From Thermoplasmata archaeon (lineage in GTDB: Archaea > Thermoplasmatota > Thermoplasmata > Lutacidiplasmatales > UBA184), in the NCBI GenBank assembly GCA_021817245.1, contig JAKAVQ010000002.1, forward strand, positions 14,721 to 78,720: a DNA stretch of 64,000 nucleotides, in the 5' to 3' direction. The position numbers were made by a program, and so were the translations under genes. Shown in pieces: positions 979 to 49,673 of this stretch. The notes under the pieces were generated by a model. That model was not told the DNA's origin, ran no database searches, and saw nothing but the letters and a program-made list of their open reading frames with translations. The first letter of the stretch is position 1, and each line of letters begins with the position of its first letter.

Positions 979-1169
979 ATCCCCGGGCCCCCTCAGGCCC
1001 GCCCCGGCGGCTCAGGCCCCGACCGGGCGGCGGCTGCCCGCGTGGTATCGCCGAACGGCGGGCTCACAACCCGACGGGCCGGCGGGGGCGAGCGGAACCG
1101 GACTCGGGGTCCCCCGGCCCCCGAACCGTATTGAGCGCGCGAACCTCGAGGCGTCGGGACGCGCCCGCG

Positions 1170-2216
1170 ATGTCGGCGATCATCCTGGGGGAGCGGGAGG
1201 TGCGCGACCTGCTCACGTACCCCGAGTGCATCGACCGGATGGACGAGGTCCTGCGGAGCCTCGCGGAGGGAGACGTGGTGCAGCCCGCCCGCACCGCCGT
1301 GGTGCTCCCGGGCGGCGAGCGACTCCTCGGGATGATGCCGGGGTACCTCGGCTCGCCTCCGACCCTCGGGGTCAAGGCGATCGCCGTCGTTCCGGGGAAC
1401 CGCGAGGTCGGTCGCCCGGCCCACCAGGGAGTCGTGGTCCTGCTCGACCCAACGACCGGCGAGACGACCGCGGTCCTCGAGGCATCCTCGGTGACCGAAA
1501 TCCGCACGGCGTCCGTGAGCGCGGTCGCCACCCGCGCCCTCGCGGTCCCGCAGGCCTCGTCCCTCGGGATCCTCGGGAGCGGCGTCCAGGCCCGTGCGCA
1601 TGCGCTCGCCCTCCCGCACGTGCGGCCGATCGCACGGCTCCGGCTCTGGGATCGGAATCCCGCACGCGCCCGTGCGCTGGCCGCGGACCTCCGCGCCGTC
1701 ATCTCGAGCGACGTGGAGGTCTCCGAGAGCGCGGAGTTCGTCGTTCGCTCCTCCGACATCCTCTGCACGACGACCGCGAGCCGAGCCCCCTATCTGAAGG
1801 GCGAGTGGCTGCGGGACGGCACCCACCTCAACGCGGTCGGCGCCGCCACGACGGGGCATCGGGAGCTCGAGCCGTCCGCCGTCCGGCGCGCGAGGGTCTT
1901 CGTCGATCACCGAGCCTCGGCGGACGCCGAGGCCGACGAGCTCCGCGTATTCCCTCCGTCGGGGCCGACCGCCCCCGACGCGGTCTCGGGAGAGCTCGGG
2001 GAGGTCCTGCTGGGTCGGGTCGCCGGACGTACGTCGCCGGGAGAGGTCACGCTGTTCAAGTCGGTCGGGCTCGCCGTCGAGGACCTCGCCGCCGCCCGAT
2101 TCCTCGTAGAGCGGGCAACGGCCCTCGGCCGGGGGATACGGGTCGACCTGGGCCCTGCCTCCCGTCCGACGCCCCCGCCGTCGAGCGAGGTCGGACCTAA
2201 GGTCCGGGGTCGTTAA
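1170..2216 (+). CDS. ornithine cyclodeaminase / mu-crystallin family protein (archaeal alanine dehydrogenase-like)
   Basis: Internal ATG at 1170 in frame of ORF 876..2216. MSAIILGEREVRDLL…GMMPGYLG…VKAIAVVPGN…ILGSGVQA Rossmann motif, typical of the OCD/mu-crystallin family. Upstream part of the ORF overlaps the MFS gene. Confidence 0.8.
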   Translation: MSAIILGEREVRDLLTYPECIDRMDEVLRSLAEGDVVQPARTAVVLPGGERLLGMMPGYLGSPPTLGVKAIAVVPGNREVGRPAHQGVVVLLDPTTGETTAVLEASSVTEIRTASVSAVATRALAVPQASSLGILGSGVQARAHALALPHVRPIARLRLWDRNPARARALAADLRAVISSDVEVSESAEFVVRSSDILCTTTASRAPYLKGEWLRDGTHLNAVGAATTGHRELEPSAVRRARVFVDHRASADAEADELRVFPPSGPTAPDAVSGELGEVLLGRVAGRTSPGEVTLFKSVGLAVEDLAAARFLVERATALGRGIRVDLGPASRPTPPPSSEVGPKVRGR

Positions 2217-4020: not shown

Positions 4021-4896
4021 ATGCCCGACCCCGTCCGTTCCGTCGTCCGCCGCTTCCCCGGTCTTCCCACGCTCGAAGGCGCTGGGGTGCGTCTGCGCCG
4101 ATCGTTCTCGAACAACGAGGTCCCGCTCTTCGACCCGTTCCTGTTGCTCGACCGGTTCGGGTCGAGCAACCCCGAGGATTACCTCGCCGGGTTCCCCTGG
4201 CACCCCCACCGGGGGATCGAGACCGTTACCTACATGCTCGACGGCCAGGTCGAGCACGGCGACACCCTCGGCAACTCGGGGGTCATCGCCGCCGGCGACA
4301 TCCAGTGGATGAACTCGGGCAGCGGGATCATCCACCAGGAGATGCCGAAGCGGACCGAGGGGACGCTTTCCGGCTTCCAGCTCTGGGTCAACCTCCCGGC
4401 GGCCCAGAAGATGAGCACCCCGGCGTATCGGGGCCTCTCGTCGACCGAGATCCCCGAGGTCACGACCGACGAGGGGAACCGCGTCAAGGTCGTCGCCGGG
4501 TCGTTCGACCGGGTCGAGGGTCCGGTGCGGGGGCTTTCGGTCGACCCGACGTACCTCGACGTGCGTCTCCCTCCGCACGGTCGCTTCGAGCTCGACCCGC
4601 CCCACGGCTTCACCGTCTTCGCGCACGAGGTCGACGGGAGCGCCACGTTCGACGGGAGCGATCCCCGCCCGGTCGAGGCCGGGGAGACCGCACTCTTCGG
4701 CGCCGGCGGAGCCGTTCGCGCCCGCGCGGCCGACACGGGGGCCCGCTTTCTCCTCGTCTCGGGCCGGCCGCTTCGCGAGCCGGTCGCGTGGTACGGACCG
4801 ATCGTGATGAACCGGCAGGACGAGCTCGCCCAGGCGGTGCGCGAGCTGCGCAACGGCGACTTCATCAAGCACCGCCGGCCGATCGTCGAGGAGTAG
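4021..4896 (+). CDS. pirin family protein
   Basis: ATG 4021 preceded by GGAGGT RBS. HPHRGIETVTYMLDG…H…E cupin metal motifs and both pirin N- and C-domains (…QLWVNLP…). Confidence 0.9.
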   Translation: MPDPVRSVVRRFPGLPTLEGAGVRLRRSFSNNEVPLFDPFLLLDRFGSSNPEDYLAGFPWHPHRGIETVTYMLDGQVEHGDTLGNSGVIAAGDIQWMNSGSGIIHQEMPKRTEGTLSGFQLWVNLPAAQKMSTPAYRGLSSTEIPEVTTDEGNRVKVVAGSFDRVEGPVRGLSVDPTYLDVRLPPHGRFELDPPHGFTVFAHEVDGSATFDGSDPRPVEAGETALFGAGGAVRARAADTGARFLLVSGRPLREPVAWYGPIVMNRQDELAQAVRELRNGDFIKHRRPIVEE

Positions 4897-5935
4897 GCCC
4901 CGCCCCGCGCAGCCGGGCGAGCGCGACCCTCAGCACCGCCACCGAGCGCCCGAGCTCGGTGATCGAGACCGACTCGCGGTCGGTGTGGTCGAGTCGGGAA
5001 TCGCCCGGCCCGTAGGCCGCGCCGGGAACGTTCCAGACCGGGGCGACGAGGTTCAGGTCGCTCGTCCCGGCCTTCCGCCATACCGTGGGGCGGCCGCCGG
5101 CGGCCCGTATCCCCTCGATCAGCGCCCGGGCGACGGGATCGCTCGCCGGACGTTCGAACGGCTCGACGCGGACCGACACCGCGAGGGCCGGCCGGCCCGG
5201 TACGGCCCGCAGCAGACCGAGGAGTTCCGCGGTCGGCAGGCCCGGGGGAAGCCGGAGGTCGACGGTGGCCCGGGCGACCTCGCGGTCGCCGGGCCCCTCC
5301 GTCTCGAGCGCGACCGCTTTCGCCGTCAGCGAGCGGAACCGCGACTCCGTAGAACGCTCCCGCGCTATCGTCCGGACCGCCCCGAGCCAGTCGAGCGCGC
5401 GGTCCGCGGCTGTCGGGAACGGGGACGAGTAGTGGGTGCGCCGCCCGCGGAACGTCGCGGTGACCCGCAGCTCGCCCTTGTAGCCGACCGTCACGCCGTC
5501 CCAGCCGCTCGGCTCGCCCGCGATCACGGCGTCCGGACGCAGTCGACCCACGAGGTGACGGGCGCCGCGGCTGTCGGTCTCCTCGCCGACCGACGCGACG
5601 ACGAGGTATTCTCCGGCCCCGGGAAGGTCGACCCCGGCCCGGAGCGCCGCCGCAAGCGGCCCTTTCGCATCGACGGCCCCGCGACCGTAGAGGCGGCCCC
5701 GCGCCCGCCGAACGGGGAGGGGGCCCTCGACGGTGTCGATGTGCCCCAGGAAGACGATCCGGGGCAGGCCCCGGCCGACCCTCGCGAGGCCGTTGCCGAC
5801 CGCGTCGGTGCGGGCGGAGTAGCCCAGGCGCCGGGCCGACCGGACGAACTCCCGGACCGCCGCCGACTCCTGCCCCGGAGGGCTGTAGCGCGCGACCAGC
5901 CTCTCGAGGAGCGCCCCATCGTCCTCAGCCGCCAC
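4865..5935 (-). CDS. lysK: [LysW]-ornithine/lysine hydrolase / acetylornithine deacetylase-like, M20 peptidase family
   Basis: M20 signature (…IVFLGHIDTV…GRGAVDAKGPLAA…VGEE…). Last gene of the LysW operon. Its 3' end overlaps convergent pirin by ~30 nt. Confidence 0.8.
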   Translation of the reverse strand: MAAEDDGALLERLVARYSPPGQESAAVREFVRSARRLGYSARTDAVGNGLARVGRGLPRIVFLGHIDTVEGPLPVRRARGRLYGRGAVDAKGPLAAALRAGVDLPGAGEYLVVASVGEETDSRGARHLVGRLRPDAVIAGEPSGWDGVTVGYKGELRVTATFRGRRTHYSSPFPTAADRALDWLGAVRTIARERSTESRFRSLTAKAVALETEGPGDREVARATVDLRLPPGLPTAELLGLLRAVPGRPALAVSVRVEPFERPASDPVARALIEGIRAAGGRPTVWRKAGTSDLNLVAPVWNVPGAAYGPGDSRLDHTDRESVSITELGRSVAVLRVALARLRGAGPTPRRSAGGA

Positions 5936-7079
5936 GGGAGACCACCTCCACGACCGTCGAAAGCGCGTCGGCCCACGCCGCCTCGGGAACCGTCAACGGA
6001 GGGAGCAGCCGCAGCACGGTCGCCCCGGCGGAGATCGCGAGGAACCCCCTCGCTTCGAGCTCGGCGAGGACGGGGAGGACCCGCTCGCGCAGCTCGATGC
6101 CGAGGAGGAGGCCGAGCCCCCGCACCTCCCGGACGCGGTCGCCCGAGAGCGCCCGCAGGCGCTCGACCGCGACCGCCCCGAGCCGCTCGGCCCGCTCGGC
6201 GAGTCGCTCGCGAACCGTGAAGTCGAGCGCCGCGAGGCCGGCGGCGCAGGCGAGCGGGTTCCCTCCGAACGTCGAATGGTGGCTGCCCCGAAAGCGACGG
6301 GCGACCTCGTCGGTCGTCACCGTCGCCCCGATCGGGACGCCGCCCGCGAGCGACTTCGCGAGCAGCAGGAGGTCGGGCACGACCCCGGCACGCTCGAAGG
6401 CGAACAGCCGACCCGTCCGGGCGATCCCGGTCTGGACCTCGTCGAACGCGAGCAACGCCCCGCGCGCCTCGGTCGCGGCCCGGGCGGCGCGCAAGTACTC
6501 GGGCGTCGCGACGTGCACGCCGCCCTCTCCTTGCACCGGCTCGAGCAGGACGATGGCGGTCGTCTCGTCGACGGCGGCCTCGAGCGCCGCGATGTCGTTG
6601 AACGGCACGTGGACGAACCCCGGGACGAGCGGTTCGAACGGCTCCCGGAGCTCCCGCCGCCAGGTCGCGCTCAACGCGCCGAGCGTGCGCCCGTGGAACC
6701 CCCGCATCGCCGCGACGACCTTCGGTCGACCGGTCGACGAACGGGCGAACTTGATGCCGGCCTCGACGGCCTCGGTCCCGGAGTTCGAGAGGAAGACCCG
6801 CCCGAACGCCGGCGGGAGGAGGCCGAGCAGCCGCTCGACGAACGCCGTACGCACCGGGTTCGAGTAGCCGGTCCCGAGGTAGATGAGGTCGCGCGCCTGG
6901 TCCGCGAGCGCCCGGGCGACCTCGGGGTTGGCCGCGCCGAGGCTCCCCGCGCCGTGGGTCGCGCCGATATCGAGGTAGCGACGACCCCGGTCGTCGACGA
7001 GGTACGCCCCGTCGGCCCGCACGAGCGATATCGGCCGGGGCGGGGCTCCCCCGATCCCTCGCTCGGCCGGGCCGCTCAT
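5925..7079 (-). CDS. argD: acetylornithine / [LysW]-aminoadipate-semialdehyde aminotransferase (class III PLP)
   Basis: MSGPAERG… start found inside fused ORF 5925..8957 (top 'cat' 7077-7079). Class-III aminotransferase motifs (…FLSNSGTEAVEAGIKFAR…AFDEVQTGIARTG…LLAKSLAGG…). ATGA overlap with upstream argB. Confidence 0.9.
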   Translation of the reverse strand: MSGPAERGIGGAPPRPISLVRADGAYLVDDRGRRYLDIGATHGAGSLGAANPEVARALADQARDLIYLGTGYSNPVRTAFVERLLGLLPPAFGRVFLSNSGTEAVEAGIKFARSSTGRPKVVAAMRGFHGRTLGALSATWRRELREPFEPLVPGFVHVPFNDIAALEAAVDETTAIVLLEPVQGEGGVHVATPEYLRAARAATEARGALLAFDEVQTGIARTGRLFAFERAGVVPDLLLLAKSLAGGVPIGATVTTDEVARRFRGSHHSTFGGNPLACAAGLAALDFTVRERLAERAERLGAVAVERLRALSGDRVREVRGLGLLLGIELRERVLPVLAELEARGFLAISAGATVLRLLPPLTVPEAAWADALSTVVEVVSRGG

Positions 7080-7870
7080 GCGATCACCGTTCCGTCGCCC
7101 GCGAGGGCGCGGGCGACCGGCGCGTCGCCGCGGGAGGAGCCGATGACGACCCGTGCGACGCCCCCCGCGAGCGCGTCGCGGGCGGCGAGCACCTTCTTCT
7201 TCATCCGCCCCTGGGCGAGCGGGACGAGCGTCGCGACCTCGGCCTTCGGGACGCTCGCGATCCGGCTCGACGGGTCGTCCACCGACCGCAAGAGGCCGGG
7301 TACGTTGGTCAGCAGGAGGAGGTCGGTCGCCCCGAGCGCGGCCGCGACCTGGGCGGCGACCCGGTCGGCGTCGACGTTCACGACCTCGCCCGCGCCGGTG
7401 ACCGCGGGCGGGCCCACGACGGGCGCGATGCCGGCGTCGAGCAGCATCCGCAACAGCCCGACGCGCACGCTCGTGACCGACCCCGAGAGGTCGTCCGTGA
7501 GGCGGACCGTCCGTCCGTCGACGACCGCGCGGGCCCCCTCGCGCCGGGTCGCCCCGAGCAGCCGGTCGTCGACCCCGGAGAGGCCGACCGCCCGGACGCC
7601 GAGACGCCCCAGTTCGGCGACGATCCGGGTCTGCACCTGCCCCGCGAGGGCGAGGACGACGACCTCCAGGTGGGCGGCGTCGCTCCGGCGCGACACGACC
7701 CCGCTCGGCGACGTGAAGTACTCGGCCGGTCGGCCGAGCGCGGCGCCGAGGCGGTCGACCTCCTCCGAGCCCCCGTGGACGAGGACCCAGTCGCGCCGGT
7801 GCGCGAGGTCGGCCAGTACGCCCGAGACCGAGTTGCCGGCGGCTCCGCCGACCTTGACGACGAGCGTCAT
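7076..7870 (-). CDS. argB: acetylglutamate / [LysW]-glutamate kinase (amino acid kinase family)
   Basis: MTLVVKVGGAA…VLVHGGS… AAK-family signature. Confidence 0.9.
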   Translation of the reverse strand: MTLVVKVGGAAGNSVSGVLADLAHRRDWVLVHGGSEEVDRLGAALGRPAEYFTSPSGVVSRRSDAAHLEVVVLALAGQVQTRIVAELGRLGVRAVGLSGVDDRLLGATRREGARAVVDGRTVRLTDDLSGSVTSVRVGLLRMLLDAGIAPVVGPPAVTGAGEVVNVDADRVAAQVAAALGATDLLLLTNVPGLLRSVDDPSSRIASVPKAEVATLVPLAQGRMKKKVLAARDALAGGVARVVIGSSRGDAPVARALAGDGTVIA

Positions 7871-7879
7871 CGCGGCCCG

Positions 7880-8905
7880 CTAGCTCGGGTGGAGCCCGAG
7901 GAACCCGAGGCCGGTCGTCTCGGGGAATCCGGCCCGGAGGTTGAAGCACTGGACGGCGTTGCCCGCGGCGCCCTTCATCAGGTTGTCGAGCGCGCCGAGC
8001 GCGACGACCCGACCGGCGTGGCCGTCGACAGCGAAGCCGACCTCGCACGTGTTCGTGCCGGCGAGGAGCTTCGGCTCGGGTTCCCGGTGGATCCCGTCGG
8101 CCTCGTGCACGATCCGCACGAACGGCTCCGACCCGTACGCCCCGCGGTAGGCGCGCCAGAGGGTCTTCTCGTCGACCGAACGGCTCCCGAACGCGTGGCA
8201 GGTCGCGAGGACGCCGCGCACCGCCTCGACCGCGTGGCAGCTCAGGGCGACGGTGAGCCCGGTCTCCTGCTCGATCTCGGCGGTGTGCCGGTGACCGGTC
8301 GCGGCGTACACGCGCATCACGCCCGAGCGCTCGGCGTGCGAGCCCGCGGGACCGGCGTCGCGTCCGCTCGCGGACGAGCCGCTCTTCGCGTCGACGATCA
8401 CCGGGCCGGGACCGACGAGGCCGGCGGTGACGAGCGGGCGGAGCGCGAGGATCGACGCGGTCGCGATGCACCCCGGCACGGCGATGATCCGGGCCGTCCT
8501 GAGCCGGTCGCGGTGGAGCTCGGGCAACCCGTAGACCGCCTCCGCGAGGAGCTCGGGATGGGGGTGCTCGGCGCGGTAGTAGACGGGGTACTGGGCGGCG
8601 TCCTTGAGCCGGTAGTCGGCCGAGAGGTCGACCACGATCCCTCCCGCGCGGACGATCTCGGGCACCCGCTCCATCGACCCCCCGTGAGGGGTAGCGAGGA
8701 ACGTCGCGTCGGCCGGCCCGAGCGCGTCGTGCGGAGTGAACGCGAGGGAGGTCGCCTTGCGGAGGTTCGGGTGCGCCCGCCCGACGGGCCGGCCCGCCAT
8801 CGAGTCCGACGTGACCTGGACGAGCTCGACCTCGGGGTGGCCGAGGAGGAGCCGGACGAGCTCTCCGCCGACGTACCCCGAGCCCCCGACGACCGCGACC
8901 TTCAC
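7880..8905 (-). CDS. argC: N-acetyl-gamma-glutamyl-phosphate reductase / LysY
   Basis: GTG start 8905 with GGAGGT RBS. VKVAVVGGSGYVGGEL…PGCIATA (catalytic Cys)…LDNLMKGAAG. Confidence 0.9.
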   Translation of the reverse strand: MKVAVVGGSGYVGGELVRLLLGHPEVELVQVTSDSMAGRPVGRAHPNLRKATSLAFTPHDALGPADATFLATPHGGSMERVPEIVRAGGIVVDLSADYRLKDAAQYPVYYRAEHPHPELLAEAVYGLPELHRDRLRTARIIAVPGCIATASILALRPLVTAGLVGPGPVIVDAKSGSSASGRDAGPAGSHAERSGVMRVYAATGHRHTAEIEQETGLTVALSCHAVEAVRGVLATCHAFGSRSVDEKTLWRAYRGAYGSEPFVRIVHEADGIHREPEPKLLAGTNTCEVGFAVDGHAGRVVALGALDNLMKGAAGNAVQCFNLRAGFPETTGLGFLGLHPS

Positions 8906-9753
8906 CGGCGCCCGACCTCCACGGCGTACTCGACGATCGCACCCGCGACGTCCGCACCGGTCGCCGCGGTGAGCGCCTTGAACTCGGGCGTCGGGTTGAC
9001 CTCGTGGACGACGAGCCCGCTCGGGGACTCCATCAGGTCGACGGCCAGGACCCCGCCGCCGACGGCGTCGGCCGCGCGCAGCGCGAGCTCCGTGATCTCG
9101 GGCGTGAGGGGCGCCGCGGTGACGCGGCCGCCGCGCGCTGCGTTCGTCCTCCACTCCGACGAGTGTCGGTACATTCCGGCGACGACCCGGTCGCCGACCA
9201 CGAACACCCGCAGGTCCCGGTCGGGCTTCGGGACGTACTCCTGGACGTAGATGACCGAGTGGACCGGCGACGTGAGCGCGGCCTTGTGCTCGAGGATCTG
9301 CACCGCGTCCTCCTCGTCGTCGACCCGGGCCATGAGGCGACCCCACGACCCGACCGCGGGCTTGAGGACGGCCGGGTACCCGATCGCGTCGATCGCGGAC
9401 ATCGCCGCTTCCGGCGAGAGCGCGACGACGGTGCGCGGGGTCGGGATGCCCCGTTCGGCGAGCCGCCACGACGCAAGGACCTTGTCGCCGGCGAGCTCGA
9501 TCACGTCGGGCGAGCTCACGGTCGGGACGCCGTAGTGCGCGTACCCGCGGGCCGCGTAGAGCGACCGGGTGTGGCTCACCGAGCGGATCAGGACGACGTC
9601 CGCGAGGTCGTCCGGGGCCTCGAGCCCGAACGTTCGCTCGCTGTCGGGCAACCGCTCGACCGCGACCCCCCGCTCGGCGGCCGCCGCGAGGATCCCCTTC
9701 TCTTCGGGGCGGACGATCGTGTAGAAGACCCCGAGGCGGAACCCGTCACTCAC
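8902..9753 (-). CDS. lysX: RimK-family ATP-grasp ligase LysX/ArgX (attaches Glu/aminoadipate to the LysW C-terminus)
   Basis: ATP-grasp motifs (…AVLKPAVGSWGR…VQEYV…VNPTPEF). GTG start overlaps lysW stop by 8 nt and the argC start by 4 nt. Confidence 0.9.
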   Translation of the reverse strand: MSDGFRLGVFYTIVRPEEKGILAAAAERGVAVERLPDSERTFGLEAPDDLADVVLIRSVSHTRSLYAARGYAHYGVPTVSSPDVIELAGDKVLASWRLAERGIPTPRTVVALSPEAAMSAIDAIGYPAVLKPAVGSWGRLMARVDDEEDAVQILEHKAALTSPVHSVIYVQEYVPKPDRDLRVFVVGDRVVAGMYRHSSEWRTNAARGGRVTAAPLTPEITELALRAADAVGGGVLAVDLMESPSGLVVHEVNPTPEFKALTAATGADVAGAIVEYAVEVGRR

Positions 9754-9907
9754 CCCAGTCCTCGGCCTCTTTCGGGGCGGGTTGCACCGCGAACGGGTCG
9801 GTCCCCTGGACCTCGAGCTCCGTTCCGCAGTCCGGGCAGGGGAAGACCTCCCCCAACACCATGTTGTGGCTCTCCACGCTCGCGTCGCACGCTGGGCACT
9901 CCGTCAT
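9746..9907 (-). CDS. lysW: amino-group carrier protein LysW/ArgW (53 aa; absent from ORF track)
   Basis: Reverse-strand ORF MTECPACDASVESHNMVLGEVFPCPDCGTELEVQGTDPFAVQPAPKEAEDWGE* has the Zn-ribbon CxxC…CxxC and the EDWGE C-terminus diagnostic of LysW. ATGA overlap with argH stop. Confidence 0.85.
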   Translation of the reverse strand: MTECPACDASVESHNMVLGEVFPCPDCGTELEVQGTDPFAVQPAPKEAEDWGE

Positions 9908-11325
9908 CTTCGTTCCTCGTCCAGGATCTCCCCGATCCGCCGCACCTTGCGGTCGAGCGAGGAGAGGGAGGTCGACCGGGCCGCGAGCCGCGACCGGGCG
10001 AGGGAGAGCTGGTGGGCGACCGCGAGCGGGGCCGGCCCGCCCGGCGATCCCCGGAGGTCGAGCGCCGCGCGGACGGAGCCGTCGTCCCCGGCCCGGGGAA
10101 GGTTCGCTGCTGCCGACCGGAGCGCCTCGGTCGCCGGCGCGCCGTCACCGGAGCGGTAGAACGACCCGACCGCCTCGTGCGCCTCACGGAACGGGACGCC
10201 GCCCGCCACGAGGCGTTCCGCGAGGTCGGTCGCGTACAGCTCCGGGTCGGCCGCCGCCGCGGCGACGCGACCGGTGTCGAGCGTGAGAGAACGGACGAGC
10301 CCGTCGACCGTGTCGAGGACGGCGGAGAGCGTCGCCACCGCGCGCAGGACGGGCGCCTTGTCCTCCTGGAGGTCGCGGTCGTAGGCGAGAGGGAGCCCTT
10401 TCAGAACGGCGAGGAGGCCGACAAGGTCCCCGATCGCGCCGCCGGCCTTCGCCCGGACGAGCTCGGCGGCGTCCGGGTTGCGCTTCTGCGGCATGAGACT
10501 GCTGCCGCTGCCGAGCGCCGGGGTCCGCTCGATGAACCCGAACTCCTTCGAGGCGAAGACGACGACCTCCTCGGCGAAGCCGCTCGCGTGCACGGCGAGC
10601 AACGCGAGGTCGAAGAGGAGCTCGACCAGCGGGTCGCGGTCGCTGACCGCGTCGAGGGAGTTCTCGAACGCGCGGTCGAAGCCCAGCCGGGCGGCGACGT
10701 ACGCCGGGTCGATCGGCAGCGTCGAGCCGGCGAGCGCCCCCGCACCGAGCGGCGATACGTTCGCGCGGCCCTCGGTCGCGAACAATCGGTCGAGGTCGCG
10801 GTCGAACCGCCAGAAGTGCGCGAGCAGGTAGTGGGCGACGGTCACCGGCTGGGCGCGCTGGAGATGCGTGTACCCCGGCATCGGGACCGCGGTCGACACG
10901 GACGCCCGGGCGAGGAGCGACTCCTCGAGCTTCGCGAGCCGGGCCGCGACGGCCGCGACGGCCTCGCGCAGGTAGAGGCGCTCGTCGAGCGCGACCTGGT
11001 CGTTGCGGCTGCGCGCCGTGTGGAGCTTCCCGCCGACCGCGCCGACGAGCTCGGTGAGGCGGACCTCGACGTTCGTGTGGACGTCCTCGAGGTCGCTCCG
11101 CCAGGCGAACCGGCCTTCCGCGACCTCGGCGGCGACCGCCCGCAGCCCGCCGATCAGGGTCTTCGCCTCGTCGGGGGTGATCAGGTTCGCCCGCCCGAGC
11201 ATCTCGGTGTGGACGACGCTGCCCGCGAGGTCGACGCGCGCGAGGGACCGGTCGACCGAGAGCGAGCTCAGGAACGCCGCCGTGGGGGTACGGACGTACG
11301 CCGGCGGGGGTCGGGGATCCGGCAT
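9904..11325 (-). CDS. argH: argininosuccinate lyase
   Basis: Start MPDPRPP… (top 'cat' 11323-11325) inside fused ORF 9904..12738. Fumarate-lyase signature GSSLMPQKRNPD, …HTARSRNDQVALD…. Confidence 0.9.
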   Translation of the reverse strand: MPDPRPPPAYVRTPTAAFLSSLSVDRSLARVDLAGSVVHTEMLGRANLITPDEAKTLIGGLRAVAAEVAEGRFAWRSDLEDVHTNVEVRLTELVGAVGGKLHTARSRNDQVALDERLYLREAVAAVAARLAKLEESLLARASVSTAVPMPGYTHLQRAQPVTVAHYLLAHFWRFDRDLDRLFATEGRANVSPLGAGALAGSTLPIDPAYVAARLGFDRAFENSLDAVSDRDPLVELLFDLALLAVHASGFAEEVVVFASKEFGFIERTPALGSGSSLMPQKRNPDAAELVRAKAGGAIGDLVGLLAVLKGLPLAYDRDLQEDKAPVLRAVATLSAVLDTVDGLVRSLTLDTGRVAAAAADPELYATDLAERLVAGGVPFREAHEAVGSFYRSGDGAPATEALRSAAANLPRAGDDGSVRAALDLRGSPGGPAPLAVAHQLSLARSRLAARSTSLSSLDRKVRRIGEILDEERR

Positions 11326-11348
11326 GGGCGTGCGCACCGTTCGCCTCG

Positions 11349-12581
11349 TCAGGCGCGGGGAGGATTCGTGGCGACCGAGGCGGTCGGCGCGGCCCCGATG
11401 GCGGACCACGTCCGCACCGGGAGCCCCCAGACGTAGATGAACCCCTCCGCCATCTCCTGACGGAAGCGGTCGCCCGTCGAGTAGGTCGCGAGCGCCGGCT
11501 GGTAGAGGGCGTTCTCCGACCGGCGTCCGACGGGGTGCGCGCGGCCCTTGAAGAGCTTCATCGCGACCTCGCCGGTCACACGGGCCTGCGTCGAGTCGAC
11601 GAACGCGTCGAGCGCCCCGCGCAGGGGCGTGAACCAGAGCCCGTCGTAGACCAGCTGGGCGTAGCGCTGCTCGACCGTACGCTTGAACTCGAGGAGGTCC
11701 CGGGGGAGGACGAGCGCCTCGAGGGCCTGGTGGGCGCCGATCAGCGCCACGGCCGCCGGGCATTCGTAGACCTCGCGCGACTTGATCCCGACGACGCGGC
11801 TCTCGAGGTGGTCGATGCGGCCGACCCCGTGGTCGCCGGCGAGACGGTTGAGGTGCGCGATCAACTCGTGGAGCGGACGTCGTTCGCCGTCGAGCGCGAC
11901 CGGCGTACCGTGCTCGAAGGCGATCGTGACGTAGGAGGGCTGGTCGGGAGCGGACGACGGCGAGCGGGTCCAGGCGTAGACCTCCTCGGGCGGCTCGATC
12001 GCGGGATCCTCGAGGATCCCGCACTCGACGGAGCGGCCCCAGAGGTTCTCGTCGGTCGAGTAGGGGGACGCCGTGGTCGCCTCGACCGGGACGCCGTGCT
12101 CGCGCGCGTAGACGATCTCCTCCTCGCGCGTCATCTTCCACTCGCGCGCCGGGGCGATCACGTCCAGTTCGGGGGCCAGTCCGGTGGTCGAGAGGTCGAA
12201 CCGGACCTGGTCGTTCCCCTTGCCCGTGCACCCGTGGGCGACGTACGCCGCGCCGTCTCGTCGGGCGACCTCGACGAGGTGGCGGCCGATCAACGGGCGG
12301 GCGAGCGCCGTACCGAGCGGGTAGATCCCCTCGTAGAGGGCGTTCGCCCGCAGCGCGGGGGCGATGAACTCCTCGGCGAACTCGCGACGGGCGTCGGCGA
12401 CGTACGCGGCGACCGCGCCCGACGCGACGGCCTTCTTGCGGACCCGTTCGAGGTCGACCGGCTGGCCGACATCGACCGTGACCGCGACGACGTCCAGCCC
12501 CTTCGTCTCCCGAAGCCACGGGATCGCGACCGACGTGTCCAGCCCGCCGGAGTACGCGAGCACCACCTTCGAGTTGGCCAT
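11349..12581 (-). CDS. argG: argininosuccinate synthase
   Basis: Internal ATG (MANSKVVLAYSGGLDTSV… PP-loop). …HGCTGKGNDQVRF… ORF-track start 12689 is an upstream extension. Confidence 0.9.
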   Translation of the reverse strand: MANSKVVLAYSGGLDTSVAIPWLRETKGLDVVAVTVDVGQPVDLERVRKKAVASGAVAAYVADARREFAEEFIAPALRANALYEGIYPLGTALARPLIGRHLVEVARRDGAAYVAHGCTGKGNDQVRFDLSTTGLAPELDVIAPAREWKMTREEEIVYAREHGVPVEATTASPYSTDENLWGRSVECGILEDPAIEPPEEVYAWTRSPSSAPDQPSYVTIAFEHGTPVALDGERRPLHELIAHLNRLAGDHGVGRIDHLESRVVGIKSREVYECPAAVALIGAHQALEALVLPRDLLEFKRTVEQRYAQLVYDGLWFTPLRGALDAFVDSTQARVTGEVAMKLFKGRAHPVGRRSENALYQPALATYSTGDRFRQEMAEGFIYVWGLPVRTWSAIGAAPTASVATNPPRA

Positions 12582-12681
12582 TCGCGTTCGTCCGAGCGAC
12601 CGGAGCACGCGGGCGCACGGATTTATAGGCCGCGGCCGTCTTCGGACTTGACTGGGCAATAGTGTCCCAAATAGGACATAT
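12582..12681. promoter_or_regulatory. bidirectional promoter region between argG (-) and the ACT-domain regulator (+)
   Basis: 100-nt intergenic, relatively AT-rich: gatttataggccg (TATA-like on both strands, ~40 nt from argG ATG) and aaataggacatatATG directly before the + gene. Confidence 0.4.
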
Positions 12682-13332
12682 ATGACCAAGGAGACCGCCT
12701 CGATCGCCCGTCGCGTCCACGCCCACCTCGACGCGCACCCCGCCCTCGCGGACGCGATCCGCCTCGGGATCGCGAACTATTCGGCGGTCGCGCGCCTGGT
12801 CTCGAGCGACCTCGAGCTGCGGCAGACGGACGCCGTCCTGGCCGCCTGCCGCCGCTACCCCCGCCGGCGCGGCGAGCTCTTCCGGGACGCGAACGTGCGG
12901 CGCGTCCTACGCAAGAGCCGCATCGAGACCCGGACGAAGGTCGCCGCGATCACGCTGGGCCAGGGATCGGACGTGCTCCAGCGCCTCGGCGACGTCGTCG
13001 AGGAATTGCTCGACGAGAGCTCGCTCTGCCGGGTCATCCAGGTCTCCCGCGGGACCGTCGTACTGGTCGACGAGGATTCGCTCCAGCGGGTGCTCCGCCC
13101 CCTGCGCGAGGGCCAGGTGATCGGGATCCGCCGCAACCTCATCGAGGTCGCGGTCACGAGCCCGGAGAGCATCGAGGAGACGCCGGGCCTCCTGCGGCAC
13201 CTCACGGGGGTCCTCTCGACCCAGGGGATCAACATCGTCGAGGCCCTCTCGTGCTACACGGACACGATCTTCCTGCTCGACCATGACGACCTCGCCCGGG
13301 CGATCGCGGTCCTGACCCCGGCCCTCCAGTGA
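12682..13332 (+). CDS. HTH + ACT-domain putative amino-acid-responsive regulator (COG2150-like)
   Basis: N-terminal helix-turn-helix (GIANYSAVARLV). C-terminal ACT-like fold (…PGLLRHLTGVLSTQGINIVEALSCYTDTIFLLD…). Divergent from the arg operon. Confidence 0.55.
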   Translation: MTKETASIARRVHAHLDAHPALADAIRLGIANYSAVARLVSSDLELRQTDAVLAACRRYPRRRGELFRDANVRRVLRKSRIETRTKVAAITLGQGSDVLQRLGDVVEELLDESSLCRVIQVSRGTVVLVDEDSLQRVLRPLREGQVIGIRRNLIEVAVTSPESIEETPGLLRHLTGVLSTQGINIVEALSCYTDTIFLLDHDDLARAIAVLTPALQ

Positions 13333-13402: not shown

Positions 13403-14548
13403 ATGACCGTGGCCCCCGGGGCGTCGGACCCCCACGGCCTCGCCCTCACGAGATCGGAGAAGGCCACCGTCGTGCTCCTCTACGCGCTGATCCTCGCGGC
13501 GACGGTCGGGGCGTTCGCCGCGGCGTTCGCCTACCTGCCGCACCATTACCCCGGCGAGCTCACCGGCGGAGGGCTCATCTTCAGCGGCCTCGCGATCACC
13601 GCGTACGTCCTCGGGGTTCGCCACGGCTTCGACGCCGACCACATCGCCGCGATCGACAACACGACCCGCAAACTCCTCAATGACGGGAAGCGTCCGCTCA
13701 CGGTCGGGACGTGGTTCTCGCTGGGCCACTCCACGATCGTCAGCGGGATGATCGTCGCGCTCGTGGTCGCGCTCAACTTCATCAACCAGAACTACCACAC
13801 CTTCGCCTCGGTCGGGGCGGTCCTCGGGACCGCGGTCTCGGGCGTCTTTCTCCTGATCATCGGGCTCGTGAACGTCCTGATCGTCGTCGAGGTCTATCGC
13901 ATCTTCCGGGGCCTCCGCGACCGTCGGCTCGACCAGAAGGCCCTCGACGAGCAGATGGAGAAGCGCGGGTTCCTCTACCGCTACTTCGGCCGGCTTTTCC
14001 GGATCGTCAACGAACCGTACCAGATCTATCCGATCGGAGTCCTGTTCGGGCTCGGGTTCGACACCGCCACCGAGGTCCTCCTCATCGGGATCGCGGTCTA
14101 CTTCGGGGGCACCGGGGCGTTCCCCCTCTGGGCGGTGCTGATCCTCCCGCTCCTGTTCACGTGCGGGATGGTCCTCTCCGACACCTCGGACGGGATCGCG
14201 ATGCGCTACGCCTACGGCTGGGCGTTCGACCAGCCGATCCGCAAGGTCTACTACAACCTCACCCTCACCGTCCTCTCCGTCCTCGTGGCGTTTGCGATCG
14301 GCGGTGTCGAGCTCCTCCAGGTGCTCTCGGCCGAGCTCGGCTGGTCGGGACCGTTCTGGACGTGGCTCGGCGGCCTCAGCTTCGAAGCCCTTGGGGTCGG
14401 GATCGTCGTGCTGTTCGTGGGGGCCTGGCTCGTCGCCCTCGCCATCTATCGCGTCAAGCACTACGAGGAGATCGGCTTCGGACCTGTCGAAGCGGTGAGC
14501 CCCCCCGCCGAGGCGTCGGCGCCCCTCGCGCCGTCGGGCGAGCCGTGA
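13403..14548 (+). CDS. NiCoT family nickel/cobalt transporter (HoxN/HupN/NixA)
   Basis: HGFDADHIAAID and GLGFDTATEV signature motifs, 8 TM segments. Preceded by AT-rich cataaccttaagtg. Confidence 0.9.
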   Translation: MTVAPGASDPHGLALTRSEKATVVLLYALILAATVGAFAAAFAYLPHHYPGELTGGGLIFSGLAITAYVLGVRHGFDADHIAAIDNTTRKLLNDGKRPLTVGTWFSLGHSTIVSGMIVALVVALNFINQNYHTFASVGAVLGTAVSGVFLLIIGLVNVLIVVEVYRIFRGLRDRRLDQKALDEQMEKRGFLYRYFGRLFRIVNEPYQIYPIGVLFGLGFDTATEVLLIGIAVYFGGTGAFPLWAVLILPLLFTCGMVLSDTSDGIAMRYAYGWAFDQPIRKVYYNLTLTVLSVLVAFAIGGVELLQVLSAELGWSGPFWTWLGGLSFEALGVGIVVLFVGAWLVALAIYRVKHYEEIGFGPVEAVSPPAEASAPLAPSGEP

Positions 14549-15015
14549 CCCGCAAGGTCGTACGGCTGGGCGTCTCGCTCGAACCCGAGCTGGTCGACCT
14601 GCTCGACCGCTGGGTAGCGCGACGCAACAGCCGGAGCCGCTCGGGAGGGATCCGGGCGCTGATCCGCAAGGAGCTCAGCGAGCGGACCCTCGCCGACCCC
14701 GACTCGGACGCTCTCGGGGTGGTGGCGCTCCTCTACCGCCACGATACTCCGAACGTTCTCGTGCGCCTCACCCGGGCCGAACACCGGTGGGGCGAGCACG
14801 TCCGGTCCACGTCGCACGTGCACCTCGAGGGGGACGCCTGCGCGGAAGTGGTCGTGCTCGCCGGCCGTCGCCGGGAGATCGAGACCGCGGCCGAGGACCT
14901 GCGGGGCGTGAAGGGGATCCTCGACGGAGGGTGGCTCGTCACGACCCCCGCGGTCGCCGGCGGCCGGACCGGGCATCGCCATCCTCACGCGGCCCCCACC
15001 GGCGAGGCCCGGTGA
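14545..15015 (+). CDS. nikR: nickel-responsive transcriptional regulator NikR
   Basis: GTG overlapping NiCoT stop (GTGA). N-terminal ribbon-helix-helix (KVVRLGVSLEPELVDLLDRWV…). C-terminal metal-binding domain with H…H…C (…HVHLEGDAC…). Confidence 0.85.
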   Translation: MTRKVVRLGVSLEPELVDLLDRWVARRNSRSRSGGIRALIRKELSERTLADPDSDALGVVALLYRHDTPNVLVRLTRAEHRWGEHVRSTSHVHLEGDACAEVVVLAGRRREIETAAEDLRGVKGILDGGWLVTTPAVAGGRTGHRHPHAAPTGEAR

Positions 15016-17374: not shown

Positions 17375-18208
17375 GTGCCGCCCCGACCCGCCGCGCGACG
17401 CCCATCGGCCGGGCCGCGGCTCGGCGACCCGCGGGCGCGCGTCCATATCGCGCCGGTCGGGTTCGAGATCGAGCGGATCACCGAGCCGATCGAGGCCGAG
17501 CGCGCCGACCGTGTCTACCTCATCACCCGGGCCGAACACGACCAGGCGGCGCCGTTCGTGGAGGAGGTCGTCCGTCGCCTCGGGTCGAGCTCGTGGCCGG
17601 TCGAGGTTCGCGTCGTCCGCACGGACCTCTGGAACGTCTTCGGCGCCCTCGCGGTGCTCCGGACGATCTTCGAGAACGAGCGGCGGACCGACCGGAACGC
17701 GTCCGACGTCCTCCCAATCCGGGTGAACGTCTCGACCGGCACCAAGATCACCGCGATCGCGGGGACCCTCGCCTGCATGCTCTGGAAGGGCGAACCGTAC
17801 TACGTCCAGGTCTCCCGGGCCTGGTACTCGGGCCGACTGCCCCGGGTCGCCGCGGTCCACGACGTCGTGGACCGGATCGATCCGGTCGGCGTGTACGCGC
17901 TGCGGGCCCCCGCGCCCGAGCTGGTCTCGGTCCTCGAGGCGCTCCAGCGGCGGGGCGGCTCGCTGCGCAAGCACGAGCTCCTCCGGGAGCTCGGGCTCGA
18001 CCGCCGCGGCCCCGGCGGAGCCCCCGCGGCCTCGCCGCAGGCGCAGCACGGACGCCTGCGACGCCGCCTCGAACCGCTCGAGATCCGGTGGGGGTTCGTG
18101 CGGTCGGAGGCCCCCGGGCCCCGGGCCCGCGTCACGCTCACCGAGCAGGGACGCGTCGCGGTCGCCATCTTTGGGCGGGTCGGCCCGCCCCTGCCCGATA
18201 TTCACTGA
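17375..18208 (+). CDS. HFX_2341-family putative transcriptional regulator (DUF6293 N-domain + C-terminal wHTH)
   Basis: RVHIAPVGFEIERI… matches the family signature (HIVPVGFDYDRI). C-terminal winged helix (…SLRKHELLRELGLD…RVTLTEQGRVAV). Confidence 0.7.
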   Translation: MPPRPAARRPSAGPRLGDPRARVHIAPVGFEIERITEPIEAERADRVYLITRAEHDQAAPFVEEVVRRLGSSSWPVEVRVVRTDLWNVFGALAVLRTIFENERRTDRNASDVLPIRVNVSTGTKITAIAGTLACMLWKGEPYYVQVSRAWYSGRLPRVAAVHDVVDRIDPVGVYALRAPAPELVSVLEALQRRGGSLRKHELLRELGLDRRGPGGAPAASPQAQHGRLRRRLEPLEIRWGFVRSEAPGPRARVTLTEQGRVAVAIFGRVGPPLPDIH

Positions 18209-38197: not shown

Positions 38198-39337
38198 CTA
38201 CGGCATCCGCTCGACGATCGCGCGGAGGGCCGACGCGGGCTCGCGTCCCCGGCCGGCCTTCGCGAGGACCCGCTCGAGCGCCGCGAACGTCACGAGGAGG
38301 TCCGGCCAGTCGGCGATCCCCATGTGGCCGATGCGGAAGATCCGCCCGGTGAGCGACCCCTGGCCCCCCTGGACGAGGACGTTGTACTGCCGCTCGAGCA
38401 CCTTGCGGAGCTCGGCGTCGCCCATCCCGGCCGGGTTCTGGACCGCGGTGACCGTGTCGGAGGCGAACCGACGGTCGGGGAACAGATCGAGGCCGAGCGC
38501 GTCGACGGCCGACCGGGTCGCCTCGGCGAGCCGGTGCGTCCGCTCGAGTCGCCGCTCGAGCCCCTCCTCGCGCAGCAGAAGGAGCGCCTCGCGCAGCGCG
38601 AGGAAGAGCGGCACGGCGGGGGTCCACGGGGTGTCGTTCTTCTCGAGCGACTTCAAGTGGGCCGCGAGGTCGAGGTAGAAGGTGCCCGGACGGAGCGCCG
38701 CGACCGCCCGGTCGGAGAGGTGGACGAGCGCGAGGCCCGCGGGCGCGGCGAGCCCCTTCTGGCTGCCCGCGACGACCGCGTCGACGCCCCACGCCTCGAT
38801 CGGGAGCGGGATCCCCGCGACCGCGCTGATCCCGTCGACGAGGAAGAGGGCGCCCGACGCCCGGACGGCGGGCGCGATCGCGGCGAGGTCGTTCGCGAGG
38901 CCGACGCTCGTCTCGTTGTGGACGACGCAGACGGCCTTCACGTCGCCCTTCTCGAGCTCCGCGCGGGCCCCGGCGACCGGGAACGGCTCGCCCCAGGCGG
39001 CGCTCACGGTCGTCACGCGGGCGGAGTATCGCCGCACGATCTGGTCGGTGCGCTCGCCGAAGTTCCCGTTCGTGACCACGAGCGTTCGCCCGTCGCGCGG
39101 AACGAGCGAGGAGTAGACCGACTCGAGGCCGGCGGTCCCGCTCCCCGTGAGGATGACCTGGTGGCCTTTCGCCCCGAACAGGACCGGGAGCAGCTCCCGG
39201 ATCTCCGCGACGATGCCGTGGAAGAAGTCGCCGCGGTGGTTGAGCGACGACATCGACATCGCGCGCAGCACCCGCGGGTGGATCCGCACGGGCCCGGCGA
39301 TCAGGAACGTCGTCGTCTCGGGGTCGAACGGCGTCAT
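38198..39337 (-). CDS. class V aminotransferase (serine-glyoxylate/alanine-glyoxylate or phosphoserine aminotransferase-like)
   Basis: MTPFDPETTTFLIAGPVRIHPRVL…SQKGLAAPAGLALV (PLP-Lys region). Class-V fold. Internal ATG of ORF 38198..40408. Confidence 0.85.
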   Translation of the reverse strand: MTPFDPETTTFLIAGPVRIHPRVLRAMSMSSLNHRGDFFHGIVAEIRELLPVLFGAKGHQVILTGSGTAGLESVYSSLVPRDGRTLVVTNGNFGERTDQIVRRYSARVTTVSAAWGEPFPVAGARAELEKGDVKAVCVVHNETSVGLANDLAAIAPAVRASGALFLVDGISAVAGIPLPIEAWGVDAVVAGSQKGLAAPAGLALVHLSDRAVAALRPGTFYLDLAAHLKSLEKNDTPWTPAVPLFLALREALLLLREEGLERRLERTHRLAEATRSAVDALGLDLFPDRRFASDTVTAVQNPAGMGDAELRKVLERQYNVLVQGGQGSLTGRIFRIGHMGIADWPDLLVTFAALERVLAKAGRGREPASALRAIVERMP

Positions 39338-40284
39338 CGCGGTCCGCCCTCCCCCCCGACGAGGCTCGTGAGCGGTTCGCCGCGCACGGCCCGCAGCACC
39401 TCGTCGACGGTGTCGACGCCCGCGCGGCGCTGGGCTTCGGCGGTCGAGGCGCCGGTGTGGGGGGTCACGATCACATTCGGTCGCGCGACGAGCGTCGGGC
39501 TCACGGGCGGTTCCACCTCCAGTACGTCGAGCGCGGCGCCCCCGAGATGGCCCGAGTCGAGGGCGGAGGCGAGGGCGGCCTCGTCGACGAGGGCGCCGCG
39601 GGCGACATTGACGAGGTAGGCGCCCCGCTTCATCCGCGCGAAGGCGTCGGCGTTGAGGAGGTGACGGTTCGACTCGGTGAGCGCCGCGTGGACGCTGACG
39701 ATGTCCGAGCGGGCGAGCACCTCCTCGAACGGAAGGAGCTCGGTCGCGTCCCCGGCCTCCGTCACGAACGGGTCGTAGGCGACCGTCCGCGCGCCGAACG
39801 GCGCGAGGCGACGGGCGATCTCGCGCGCGATCCGGCCGTATCCGACGAACCCGACGGTCCGGCCCGAGAGCTCGCCGCCGTGGGTCCCGCGGTCCCAGCG
39901 ACCGGCCTTGGTCGCCGCGATCTGGGGATAGAGGCCCCGCACGAGGAGCAGGTAGAGGGCGACCGCGAGCTCCGCGACGCTCGCGGTCGCGGCGGCGGGA
40001 GCGTTGACGACTCGGACCCCCCGGGCGCGGGCGGCGGGGAGGTCGATGTTGTCGACGCCGACCCCGGCGCGGGCGACGAGCGAGAGCTTCGGGGCCTTCG
40101 CGAGGAGCGCCGACGTCACCCGGGTCCGGCTTCGGACGACCAGCGCCCAGGCGTCGGCGAGGGCCGCGTCGAGCGACCGGGGGTCGGCGCTCGCGTCCAC
40201 GACCCGGCACGGCCCCGCGCGCAGGCGGTCGAGCGCGGCGGCGTCGATCGGGTCGGCGACGACCACGCACGGTAGCTCGGCCAT
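39334..40284 (-). CDS. D-isomer-specific 2-hydroxyacid dehydrogenase (phosphoglycerate dehydrogenase/hydroxypyruvate reductase-like)
   Basis: GFVGYGRIAREIARRL NAD site, …VNVARGALVDE…, …IVTPHTGASTAEAQ… ATGA overlap with downstream aminotransferase. Confidence 0.85.
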   Translation of the reverse strand: MAELPCVVVADPIDAAALDRLRAGPCRVVDASADPRSLDAALADAWALVVRSRTRVTSALLAKAPKLSLVARAGVGVDNIDLPAARARGVRVVNAPAAATASVAELAVALYLLLVRGLYPQIAATKAGRWDRGTHGGELSGRTVGFVGYGRIAREIARRLAPFGARTVAYDPFVTEAGDATELLPFEEVLARSDIVSVHAALTESNRHLLNADAFARMKRGAYLVNVARGALVDEAALASALDSGHLGGAALDVLEVEPPVSPTLVARPNVIVTPHTGASTAEAQRRAGVDTVDEVLRAVRGEPLTSLVGGEGGPR

Positions 40285-41283: not shown

Positions 41284-41559
41284 CTTCGGTCTCCGGCGGC
41301 GGGAGTCTCGCTCGCTATATTATCGTGGACGGCGGCCGCCGACCGGTCGCCCCGCCCCCGTGTTCCCCCACCGTAACGACCCGCGTCATCGCAGGCGCTC
41401 GCCCTCTCGGAGGTCTGACCCCGGCCGGGGGTGTCGGACACCGGGGTTGTCCTCACGTCATCCTCGGCGGACGACCCGTCCGCATTGAGTCGAGAGGGAC
41501 CCTTCGTCGGTACCCGGGCACGACCTGGGGTCGTACCGAAGCCGACAGAGTGCGCGTCA

Positions 41560-42087
41560 CTATGAGGTTAGCGCCTCCTCGCGGTCGAACAGGCGGGGCC
41601 GGGCGACCAGGAACGCGACCGCGCCGATCGCGAACGCGAGGAGCCCCGCGGCGACGCCGACCGTTGCCGAGCCGGGCGGTAGCAGGAGCGCGCTCACCCA
41701 CGACATCGCGACCGCCAGCGCGGGCAGAAGGAGGCCGGCGCCGGCCCGGCGGACCCCGCGGGCCGGTCGGTGCGGGTCGTCCGCCAGCCACAGCAGGAAG
41801 ACGAGCCCGGCCGCCCCGGCCGCGAGCGCCGGAACGAGGCCGAGGGGCGAGACGACGGCCGCGAGGCCGAGCCCGCCGAGGACCGGCACCGGGGCGAACG
41901 GGCGGGTCCGCGCCCCTCCGAACCTCCGGAGGAGGATCCCGAGGCCGGCGGCGACGAGCGTTCCCGCGAGGAGAAGCGCACGGTCCCCGCCGGCGACCCC
42001 CGCGAAGAGCCCCGCCGCGACCAGGAGCAGCGCGTCCGACATCGCCCCCGCGAGTCGCCCCCCGCGGCCGGGAGCGGGCGGGATCAT
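41560..42087 (-). CDS. hypothetical integral membrane protein
   Basis: 4-5 hydrophobic helices (…LLLVAAGLFAGVAGG…LGLAAVVSPLGLVPALAAG…). Start overlaps DUF58 stop (ATGA-type). Confidence 0.45.
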   Translation of the reverse strand: MIPPAPGRGGRLAGAMSDALLLVAAGLFAGVAGGDRALLLAGTLVAAGLGILLRRFGGARTRPFAPVPVLGGLGLAAVVSPLGLVPALAAGAAGLVFLLWLADDPHRPARGVRRAGAGLLLPALAVAMSWVSALLLPPGSATVGVAAGLLAFAIGAVAFLVARPRLFDREEALTS

Positions 42088-49639: not shown

Positions 49640-49673
49640 CGGCGATATATCCCGACCTCACCTTAGTGTGACA
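49640..49673 (+). promoter_or_regulatory. TATA-like promoter for second surface-protein gene (leaderless)
   Basis: ggcGATATATccc at 49641-49653, ~25 nt before ATG 49674. Confidence 0.4.

Follow-up and report, generated by a model that had tools for sequence, protein, structure and literature searches.

Organization of the operon

We analysed a 64-kb stretch of DNA (contig JAKAVQ010000002.1; hereafter the window) from an uncultured Thermoplasmata archaeon, in which the minus strand at 4865–12581 carries an intact eight-gene operon for a LysW/ArgW amino-group carrier protein pathway, in the order argG-argH-lysW-lysX-argC-argB-argD-lysK. An earlier reading of the letters alone (the sequence-only reading) had described eight collinear minus-strand genes between these positions; every open reading frame (ORF) was found where it had been placed, all were intact, and each of the eight proteins matched the NCBIfam and Pfam families expected for it strongly and over essentially its full length. 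The first cistron, argG (11349–12581; 410 amino acids (aa)), begins with an ATG at 12581 and encodes argininosuccinate synthase (NF001770, 585 bits, cut-off 334; PF00764 and PF20979 also match), followed by argH (9904–11325; 473 aa) for argininosuccinate lyase (TIGR00838, 469 bits, cut-off 279.5; PF00206 and PF14698). The carrier gene lysW/argW (9746–9907; 53 aa; TIGR01206, 64.3 bits, cut-off 53.2; PF21344) comes third, and lysX/argX (8902–9753; 283 aa) encodes an ATP-grasp ligase (TIGR02144, 322 bits, cut-off 275.6; PF22626 and PF08443) that is predicted to load an amino acid onto the carrier.

The second half of the operon comprises argC/lysY (7880–8905; 341 aa), for a carrier-bound glutamyl-phosphate reductase (TIGR01850, 381 bits, cut-off 233.6); argB/lysZ (7076–7870; 264 aa), for a carrier-bound glutamate kinase (NF010659, [LysW]-aminoadipate kinase, 279 bits, cut-off 223; PF00696); argD/lysJ (5925–7079; 384 aa), for a class-III aminotransferase whose top NCBIfam match is NF042418 (LysJ; 408 bits, under the cut-off of 700), with TIGR00707 (argD; 379 bits) and PF00202 also matching; and, as last cistron, lysK/argE (4865–5935; 356 aa), for an M20 hydrolase (NF003367, [LysW]-lysine hydrolase, 328 bits, cut-off 363; TIGR01902, 234 bits, cut-off 163; PF01546). 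The GC content at third codon positions was 0.89–0.96 in each of the eight genes, as expected for real genes of a genome with 73% GC.

The junctions are those that had been described, with ATGA overlaps at argH/lysW and argB/argD, a GTGA overlap at lysX/argC, and overlaps of 8 nt between lysW and lysX and of 11 nt between argD and lysK; the remaining two junctions are gaps of 23 nt (argG/argH) and 9 nt (argC/argB). These overlapping or near-abutting junctions, together with a conserved TATAAAT element upstream of argG, fit a single transcription unit, and the eight genes are probably read as one transcript. The carrier gene had been absent from the original ORF track because its product of 53 aa falls under the usual default cut-off of 60 aa; it appears once the minimum is set at 40 aa, and it is called in the public annotation of relatives.

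Carrier and ligase motifs

The translated lysW gives directly the 53-aa carrier ending in EDWGE that the earlier reading had reported, with a zinc ribbon formed by C4, C7, C24 and C27 (CxxC...CxxC). EDWGE is the C-terminus in 77 of the 79 lysW homologues in the fetched loci, and the matches of the carrier in the PDB are Thermus thermophilus LysW (3wwl, E=8e-16) and 5k2m_E. The ligase carries at residues 135–139 the motif GSWGR, which recognises the carrier EDWGE, and matches the structures 3vpd (E=2e-73), 5k2m (E=3e-70), 1uc8 and 3vpb (E=5e-47). Judged from the encoded proteins, all the parts that define an amino-group carrier protein pathway are encoded here, namely the carrier, a GSWGR ligase and contiguous, intact enzymes of the LysZ, LysY, LysJ and LysK types.

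The substrate motif of these ligases consists of five residues, corresponding to positions 182, 192, 203, 258 and 259 of T. thermophilus LysX; F-I-T-NS (FITNS) is the strictly aminoadipate-specific type, I-Y-V-GF that of Sulfolobales ArgX and Y-I-T-NA that of the bifunctional Thermococcales enzymes (PMC12998189). In the window ligase the motif is F184-M194-A205-A260-L261, which is none of these three, the polar Thr and Asn-Ser being replaced by Ala and Ala-Leu. This comparison of substrate pockets, which the sequence-only reading had proposed, thus separates the enzyme from the LysX, Sulfolobus ArgX and Thermococcus types and matches it to haloarchaeal ArgX: the ligase of Halolamina salifodinae (L081 in our numbering of loci) has L-M-A-A-L, a motif found in identical form in several close Thermoplasmata relatives of the window. 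Natrinema gari ArgX is likewise reported to have Ala-Leu at the last two motif positions. In vitro it charges ArgW with glutamate and not with aminoadipate; that organism becomes auxotrophic for arginine when argW, argX, argB or argD is deleted (loss of argX causes no lysine auxotrophy), and its lysine depends on the diaminopimelate (DAP) pathway (PMC10433800).

Variation of the motif was seen among Thermoplasmata relatives with the same operon context, including F-M-A-T-L and F-M-A-S-L (L013, L016, L019 and L029), N-I-T-T-V (L038, 3917–4753) and H-I-A-A-A (L045, 10001–10837). N-I-T-T-V resembles the aminoadipate-type motifs, so that the substrate range may vary within the lineage. Furthermore, one low-GC Thermoplasmata chromosome (L049) has a FITNS ligase, in a cluster that is partial.

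Conservation and linkage with argG-argH

A scan of one genome per species yielded 80 loci. The closest homologues of the ligase are all from uncultured Thermoplasmata archaea, with more than 100 clusters at 76–97% identity; the best locus (JAJZGO010000044.1, 'Thermoplasmata archaeon isolate LL4.bin73') has a ligase with 97% identity and eight operon proteins with 91–97% identity to those of the window. The order argG-argH-lysW-lysX, followed by argC, argB, argD and lysK as far as the contig allows, was seen in 43 of the 46 loci of the Thermoplasmata clade, the other three being truncated or frameshifted assemblies; the operon is therefore a stable trait of a lineage that is widespread in soil, peat and sediment, and not a peculiarity of the window. 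A tblastn search found one LysX match in each of these 46 loci. Long-contig assemblies of relatives (L001–L003) show argG and argH as one 912-aa product (L001, 7112–9850) or have several operon genes split; the merged or split gene calls in these three loci are most likely assembly frameshift errors, not true fusions or pseudogenes.

Linkage of the carrier gene to argG-argH was then compared with ligase type in the 30 loci outside the Thermoplasmata clade that had evaluable upstream sequence. In 10 of them argG-argH immediately precedes lysW (Anaerolineae, Chloroflexia, Bipolaricaulota, Thermotogae, Nitrososphaerales and Halolamina), and each of these 10 has a non-FITNS ligase, either as its sole ligase (four loci) or beside a FITNS paralogue (six loci); seven loci have a FITNS-type ligase alone, and the linkage occurs in none of them. 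Linkage to argG-argH thus tracks the presumptive glutamate ligase, and the window, with a single non-FITNS ligase joined to argG-argH, falls in the arginine class. The same distribution removes the novelty that the earlier reading had implied for the argG-argH head of the operon, this order being standard in haloarchaea and also present in Chloroflexota, Bipolaricaulota, Thermotogae and Nitrososphaerales.

Arginine or lysine

We estimate a probability of about 0.75 that the operon is dedicated to arginine biosynthesis on a carrier protein (ArgW type) in this uncultured Thermoplasmata archaeon. The same proposal had been made in the sequence-only reading, and each test that was run favoured it (the substrate motif, the argG-argH linkage and the gene content of the window), so that it stands as supported, not proven; the glutamate specificity of the ligase is something that we infer from its motif and gene context only. 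As to gene content, Pfam and NCBIfam models were scanned against about 55 gene calls across the window. The absence of homocitrate synthase, homoaconitase and homoisocitrate dehydrogenase genes, noted earlier, holds within these 64 kb, in which no homocitrate synthase, aconitase-family or isocitrate-dehydrogenase-family gene (HMGL-like, Iso_dh) was found; nor did the scan reveal any gene of the DAP pathway, and tblastn found neither a further LysX nor a further LysW paralogue there.

In the pathway that we propose, in which every biochemical step is modelled on characterised homologues, ArgX (the lysX product) would attach glutamate, through its alpha-amino group, to the gamma-carboxyl group of the C-terminal Glu53 of the carrier, after which ArgB/LysZ would phosphorylate the carrier-bound glutamate, ArgC/LysY would reduce it and ArgD/LysJ would transaminate it. 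The M20 hydrolase LysK/ArgE would then free ornithine and regenerate the carrier, an ornithine carbamoyltransferase encoded elsewhere would yield citrulline, and ArgG and ArgH would convert citrulline to arginine. All eight genes would be expressed from a single transcript starting at the conserved TATA box that lies some 40 nt upstream of argG.

Several observations weigh against this assignment. By overall sequence the window ligase is nearest to Thermus LysX (3vpd) and Thermococcus LysX and far from Sulfolobus ArgX, and the NCBIfam equivalogs that pass their cut-offs carry lysine names (LysX_arch, [LysW]-aminoadipate kinase). Such lysine-named matches are expected here because a published LysZ tree joins the Thermus/Deinococcus enzymes and the haloarchaeal arginine-type enzymes as sister groups with a bootstrap of 93% (PMC12998189), and sequence similarity alone does not decide ligase specificity. 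Two neighbour-joining trees placed the Thermoplasmata ligases as sister to haloarchaeal ArgX with a bootstrap of only 24%, for which reason orthology with haloarchaeal ArgX is not claimed; the shared x-M-A-A-L motif may be convergent, and F-M-A-A-L occurs in unrelated branches as well, for example in a Helarchaeota cluster. The motif is, moreover, an indicator and not a sufficient determinant, since a motif swap in Natrinema ArgX did not transfer aminoadipate specificity (PMC10433800). Finally, neither argF (OTCace family) nor carAB was found in the window scan, and with no argF the operon does not cover the whole arginine pathway; the Pfam lists of L001–L004 likewise hold no OTCace-family gene downstream of lysK.

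Of the alternatives, the one that survives best is a bifunctional cluster as in Thermococcus kodakarensis, in which one broad-specificity ligase would load both glutamate and alpha-aminoadipate, the four downstream enzymes would make ornithine as well as lysine, and the aminoadipate-forming genes would lie elsewhere in the genome. The 45–50% identity of the window ligase to Thermus and Thermococcus LysX is compatible with such a system, as is the aminoadipate-like N-I-T-T-V motif in L038, a close relative with the same operon context; the downstream enzymes belong to a family known as promiscuous (PMC12998189), and the gene-content evidence covers the 64-kb window. The motif itself, however, is not Y-I-T-NA, its positions 3–5 being the small or hydrophobic A, A and L where aminoadipate-accepting enzymes have the polar T, N and S/A, and it agrees with that of a haloarchaeal enzyme that is glutamate-only by experiment; argG and argH are built into the operon, while the window holds no aminoadipate-branch genes. 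We therefore consider bifunctionality unlikely. A lysine-only LysW pathway of the Thermus type with argG and argH as mere neighbours, which would agree with the database names of relatives ('lysine biosynthesis protein LysX', '[LysW]-L-2-aminoadipate ligase'), the lysine-named best-scoring equivalogs and Thermus LysX as the nearest solved structure, is highly improbable given that F-I-T-NS is replaced at positions 2–5 by M, A, A and L, that argH and lysW overlap by 4 nt in an argG-argH-lysW order kept in 43 Thermoplasmata loci, that no FITNS-only locus is linked to argG-argH, and that Thermus and Deinococcus provided the training sequences for the lysine-named models, so that cross-matches are expected.

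Comparison with known systems

The closest known system to the presumed arginine operon of the window is the haloarchaeal ArgW arginine operon (Natrinema gari, PMC10433800; Halolamina, L081), which has the identical order of eight genes, a single ligase with GSWGR and the x-M-A-A-L motif, a carrier ending in EDWGE, and no aminoadipate-branch genes in the cluster. The window differs from it in phylum, in its non-halophilic protein composition, in a ligase identity of only about 50% with the weak grouping noted above, and in having no argF in the operon, whereas in Halolamina argF directly follows argE. About 1 kb downstream of that argF, Halolamina carries an HMGL-like gene (L081, 17029–18114, minus strand) with an HCS_D2 domain (homocitrate/citramalate/isopropylmalate synthase family).

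Sulfolobus acidocaldarius and Sulfurisphaera tokodaii share with the window the carrier chemistry, the four downstream enzyme families and a glutamate-loading ligase (for the window, a predicted one). The Sulfolobales, however, have two ligase paralogues, with I-Y-V-GF in ArgX, and downstream enzymes that serve both lysine and arginine, whereas the window has one ligase with F-M-A-A-L, which matches S. tokodaii ArgX (3vpb) at an E-value of 5e-47 as against 2e-73 for Thermus LysX. Thermococcus kodakarensis (TK0278 and its neighbours) resembles the window in its single ligase, single carrier and homologous enzymes (5k2m, E=3e-70); its Y-I-T-NA ligase serves lysine and ornithine synthesis (PMC12998189), in contrast to the window, with F-M-A-A-L, argG-argH and no nearby aminoadipate-forming genes. 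For the ligase, kinase and hydrolase, the T. thermophilus lysine pathway (LysX, LysZ, LysY, LysJ and LysK) provides both the nearest solved structures and the curated models with the highest scores. Thermus LysX is strictly aminoadipate-specific with F-I-T-NS, and Thermus makes arginine by a separate acetyl-dependent pathway; the window has A and AL in place of T and NS, and its cluster is joined to argG-argH.

Outside these groups, loci of Chloroflexota, Bipolaricaulota, Thermotogae and Nitrososphaerales (L046, L048, L050, L051, L053, L062, L064, L073 and L084) have argG-argH directly upstream of lysW, followed by one or more ligases, argC, argB, argD and lysK, with enzymes 43–54% identical to those of the window. 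The non-FITNS motifs in these loci are IITTA, LVTGA and IVVGA, and many of the loci have a second, FITNS ligase, presumably forming a dual lysine and arginine system. More generally, two LysX paralogues, one FITNS and the other not, share one lysW in many bacterial loci (Chloroflexota, Thermotogae and Fraserbacteria), mostly as adjacent genes, and such tandem paralogues occurred in bacterial loci only; paired ligases were seen in L047, L048, L050, L051, L053, L057–L059, L064, L066–L068, L072, L073, L078, L080, L082 and L083, and the bacterial two-ligase loci look like a Sulfolobus-style dual system for lysine and arginine. In the Thermomicrobiales loci a third, distant ATP-grasp gene lies beside lysK.

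The operon is thus real and largely ordinary, with an argG-argH head that is known and recurrent, and it would not surprise a specialist. In the literature searched we found no description of the carrier-protein pathway in Thermoplasmata, and the proposed assignment would extend to uncultured soil and sediment members of this group the glutamate-specific carrier pathway for arginine, demonstrated genetically and biochemically so far only in a haloarchaeon. Public annotation labels these Thermoplasmata loci 'lysine biosynthesis', which is probably wrong for this lineage; an error of this kind matters for metabolic reconstruction and for the prediction of auxotrophies from metagenome-assembled genomes. 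The recurrence of argG-argH next to lysW in archaea and bacteria, and its association with a non-FITNS ligase, provides a simple context rule for distinguishing ArgX from LysX.

Upstream region and the divergent gene

The intergenic region between argG and a divergently transcribed gene spans 100 nt (12582–12681) and includes 60 bp of upstream DNA that are strongly conserved. A TATAAAT sequence on the minus strand (12621–12627), 40 nt upstream of the argG ATG, is likely an archaeal TATA box and the predicted origin of the operon transcript. Across 41 aligned intergenic regions its column identity is 0.90, and the box begins 39–51 nt (mostly 43–48) from the argG start. The 54 nt between the TATA box and the divergent gene (12628–12681) are far more strongly conserved than the 5′ untranslated region, with a mean column identity of 0.68 compared with 0.50 in genomes that share no more than 55–97% identity in LysX, and form a candidate operator. 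This region contains the palindrome TGTCC-N6-GGACA (12663–12678), 3 nt from the start codon of the divergent gene, followed by TGCCC, GTC(C/G) and CGG(T/C)C blocks. The palindrome is not significantly enriched within the window (one match against 0.5 expected), and the case for an operator is therefore built on the footprint across genomes.

The product of the divergent gene (12682–13332, plus strand) is a protein of 216 aa that combines a helical DUF7523 domain at its N-terminus with a tandem ACT domain (PF24367 and PF13840 (ACT_7)); the gene lies next to the operon in divergent orientation in each of the 40 Thermoplasmata loci with upstream sequence. In annotation it is labelled as hypothetical, as an ACT-domain protein or, wrongly, as aspartokinase. 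The gene and the upstream palindrome are kept in Thermoplasmata; they were not detected within 10 kb in Halolamina, and none of the Chloroflexota, Bipolaricaulota, Thermotogae and Nitrososphaerales loci described above has a DUF7523-ACT neighbour. In an AlphaFold2 model (mean predicted local distance difference test score, 78), residues ~80–216 found structural matches (Foldseek E=3e-8, probability 1.0) in the regulatory tandem-ACT domains of aspartokinases and in aspartokinase beta subunits. The N-terminal five-helix domain, examined for a helix-turn-helix, gave no significant match in a profile search against PDB sequences, a permissive Pfam search or a Foldseek search with a separate model of this domain (best E=4.9); a DNA-binding fold for this domain is thus unsupported, and a DNA-binding role is only a hypothesis, prompted by the divergent layout and the conserved palindrome.

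Two functions of the DUF7523-ACT protein may be considered, each of which we regard as possible but somewhat doubtful. It may be a new archaeal amino-acid-responsive regulator that binds the TGTCC-N6-GGACA region and controls the ArgW operon in this lineage; autoregulated transcription factors typically have this arrangement, in which the gene is transcribed away from a conserved palindrome, here 3 nt from the start codon. The literature searched contained no arginine-biosynthesis regulator built in this way and no paper mentioning 'DUF7523'. By analogy with the free-standing tandem-ACT beta subunits of aspartokinases, it could instead be an amino-acid-binding regulatory subunit or small-molecule sensor that acts on an enzyme such as ArgB, in which case another factor would bind the conserved upstream DNA. 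The similarity of residues ~80–216 to regulatory domains of aspartokinases and to their free-standing beta subunits (3mah, 2zho and 2dtj) and the N-terminal domain with no significant match to any helix-turn-helix family point to such a subunit; the gene layout speaks against it, as does the fact that the ArgB/LysZ of the operon has no ACT domain to pair with. Together, the conserved ACT-domain gene and the palindrome provide a modest, testable lead on the archaeal regulation of such operons.

Neighbouring genes

Beyond the operon 3′ end, a pirin-family gene (4021–4896, plus strand) converges on lysK, the 3′ coding ends of the two overlapping by 32 nt; relatives carry other genes downstream of lysK, for example a DUF973 gene. 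A gene of the ornithine cyclodeaminase/mu-crystallin family (1131–2216, plus strand; PF02423, E=3e-77) lies 2.6 kb past the operon, with NCBIfam matches that are all under their cut-offs (Pyr2C/Pip2C reductase, OCD family and archaeal alanine dehydrogenase); its product could provide a link between ornithine and proline, and the gene is not in the flanks of L001–L004. On the other side, genes for a NicO nickel/cobalt transporter and a NikR-like regulator (13403–15015, plus strand) overlap by 4 nt and stand beside the ACT gene in most related loci. Further along, a gene at 17375–18208 (plus strand) combines an HFX_2341-like N-terminal domain with a DUF6293 winged-helix domain and has a weak Csa3/CARF-like match; it is syntenic in relatives, and the window showed no CRISPR or cas genes.

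A region of lower GC content (0.68–0.71) with few confident gene calls extends over 47700–53400 and includes a 1185-aa ORF with YNCE/lactonase beta-propeller repeats (48231–51788, plus strand) and tRNA-Gly(GCC) (52127–52201). An ARAGORN call, a 98-nt 'tRNA-???' with a two-base anticodon inside argD (6096–6193, minus strand), found no confirmation in Rfam and can almost certainly be dismissed as a false positive. The minus strand at 40333–44730 carries consecutive genes for a MoxR-type AAA ATPase, an unannotated protein, a DUF58 protein, a small ORF and a DUF4129 protein. The minus-strand pair at 38198–40284, with a 4-nt overlap, encodes a D-3-phosphoglycerate-dehydrogenase-like protein and a class-V aminotransferase (aspartate-glyoxylate/serine-pyruvate-like), and possibly belongs to serine or glyoxylate metabolism.

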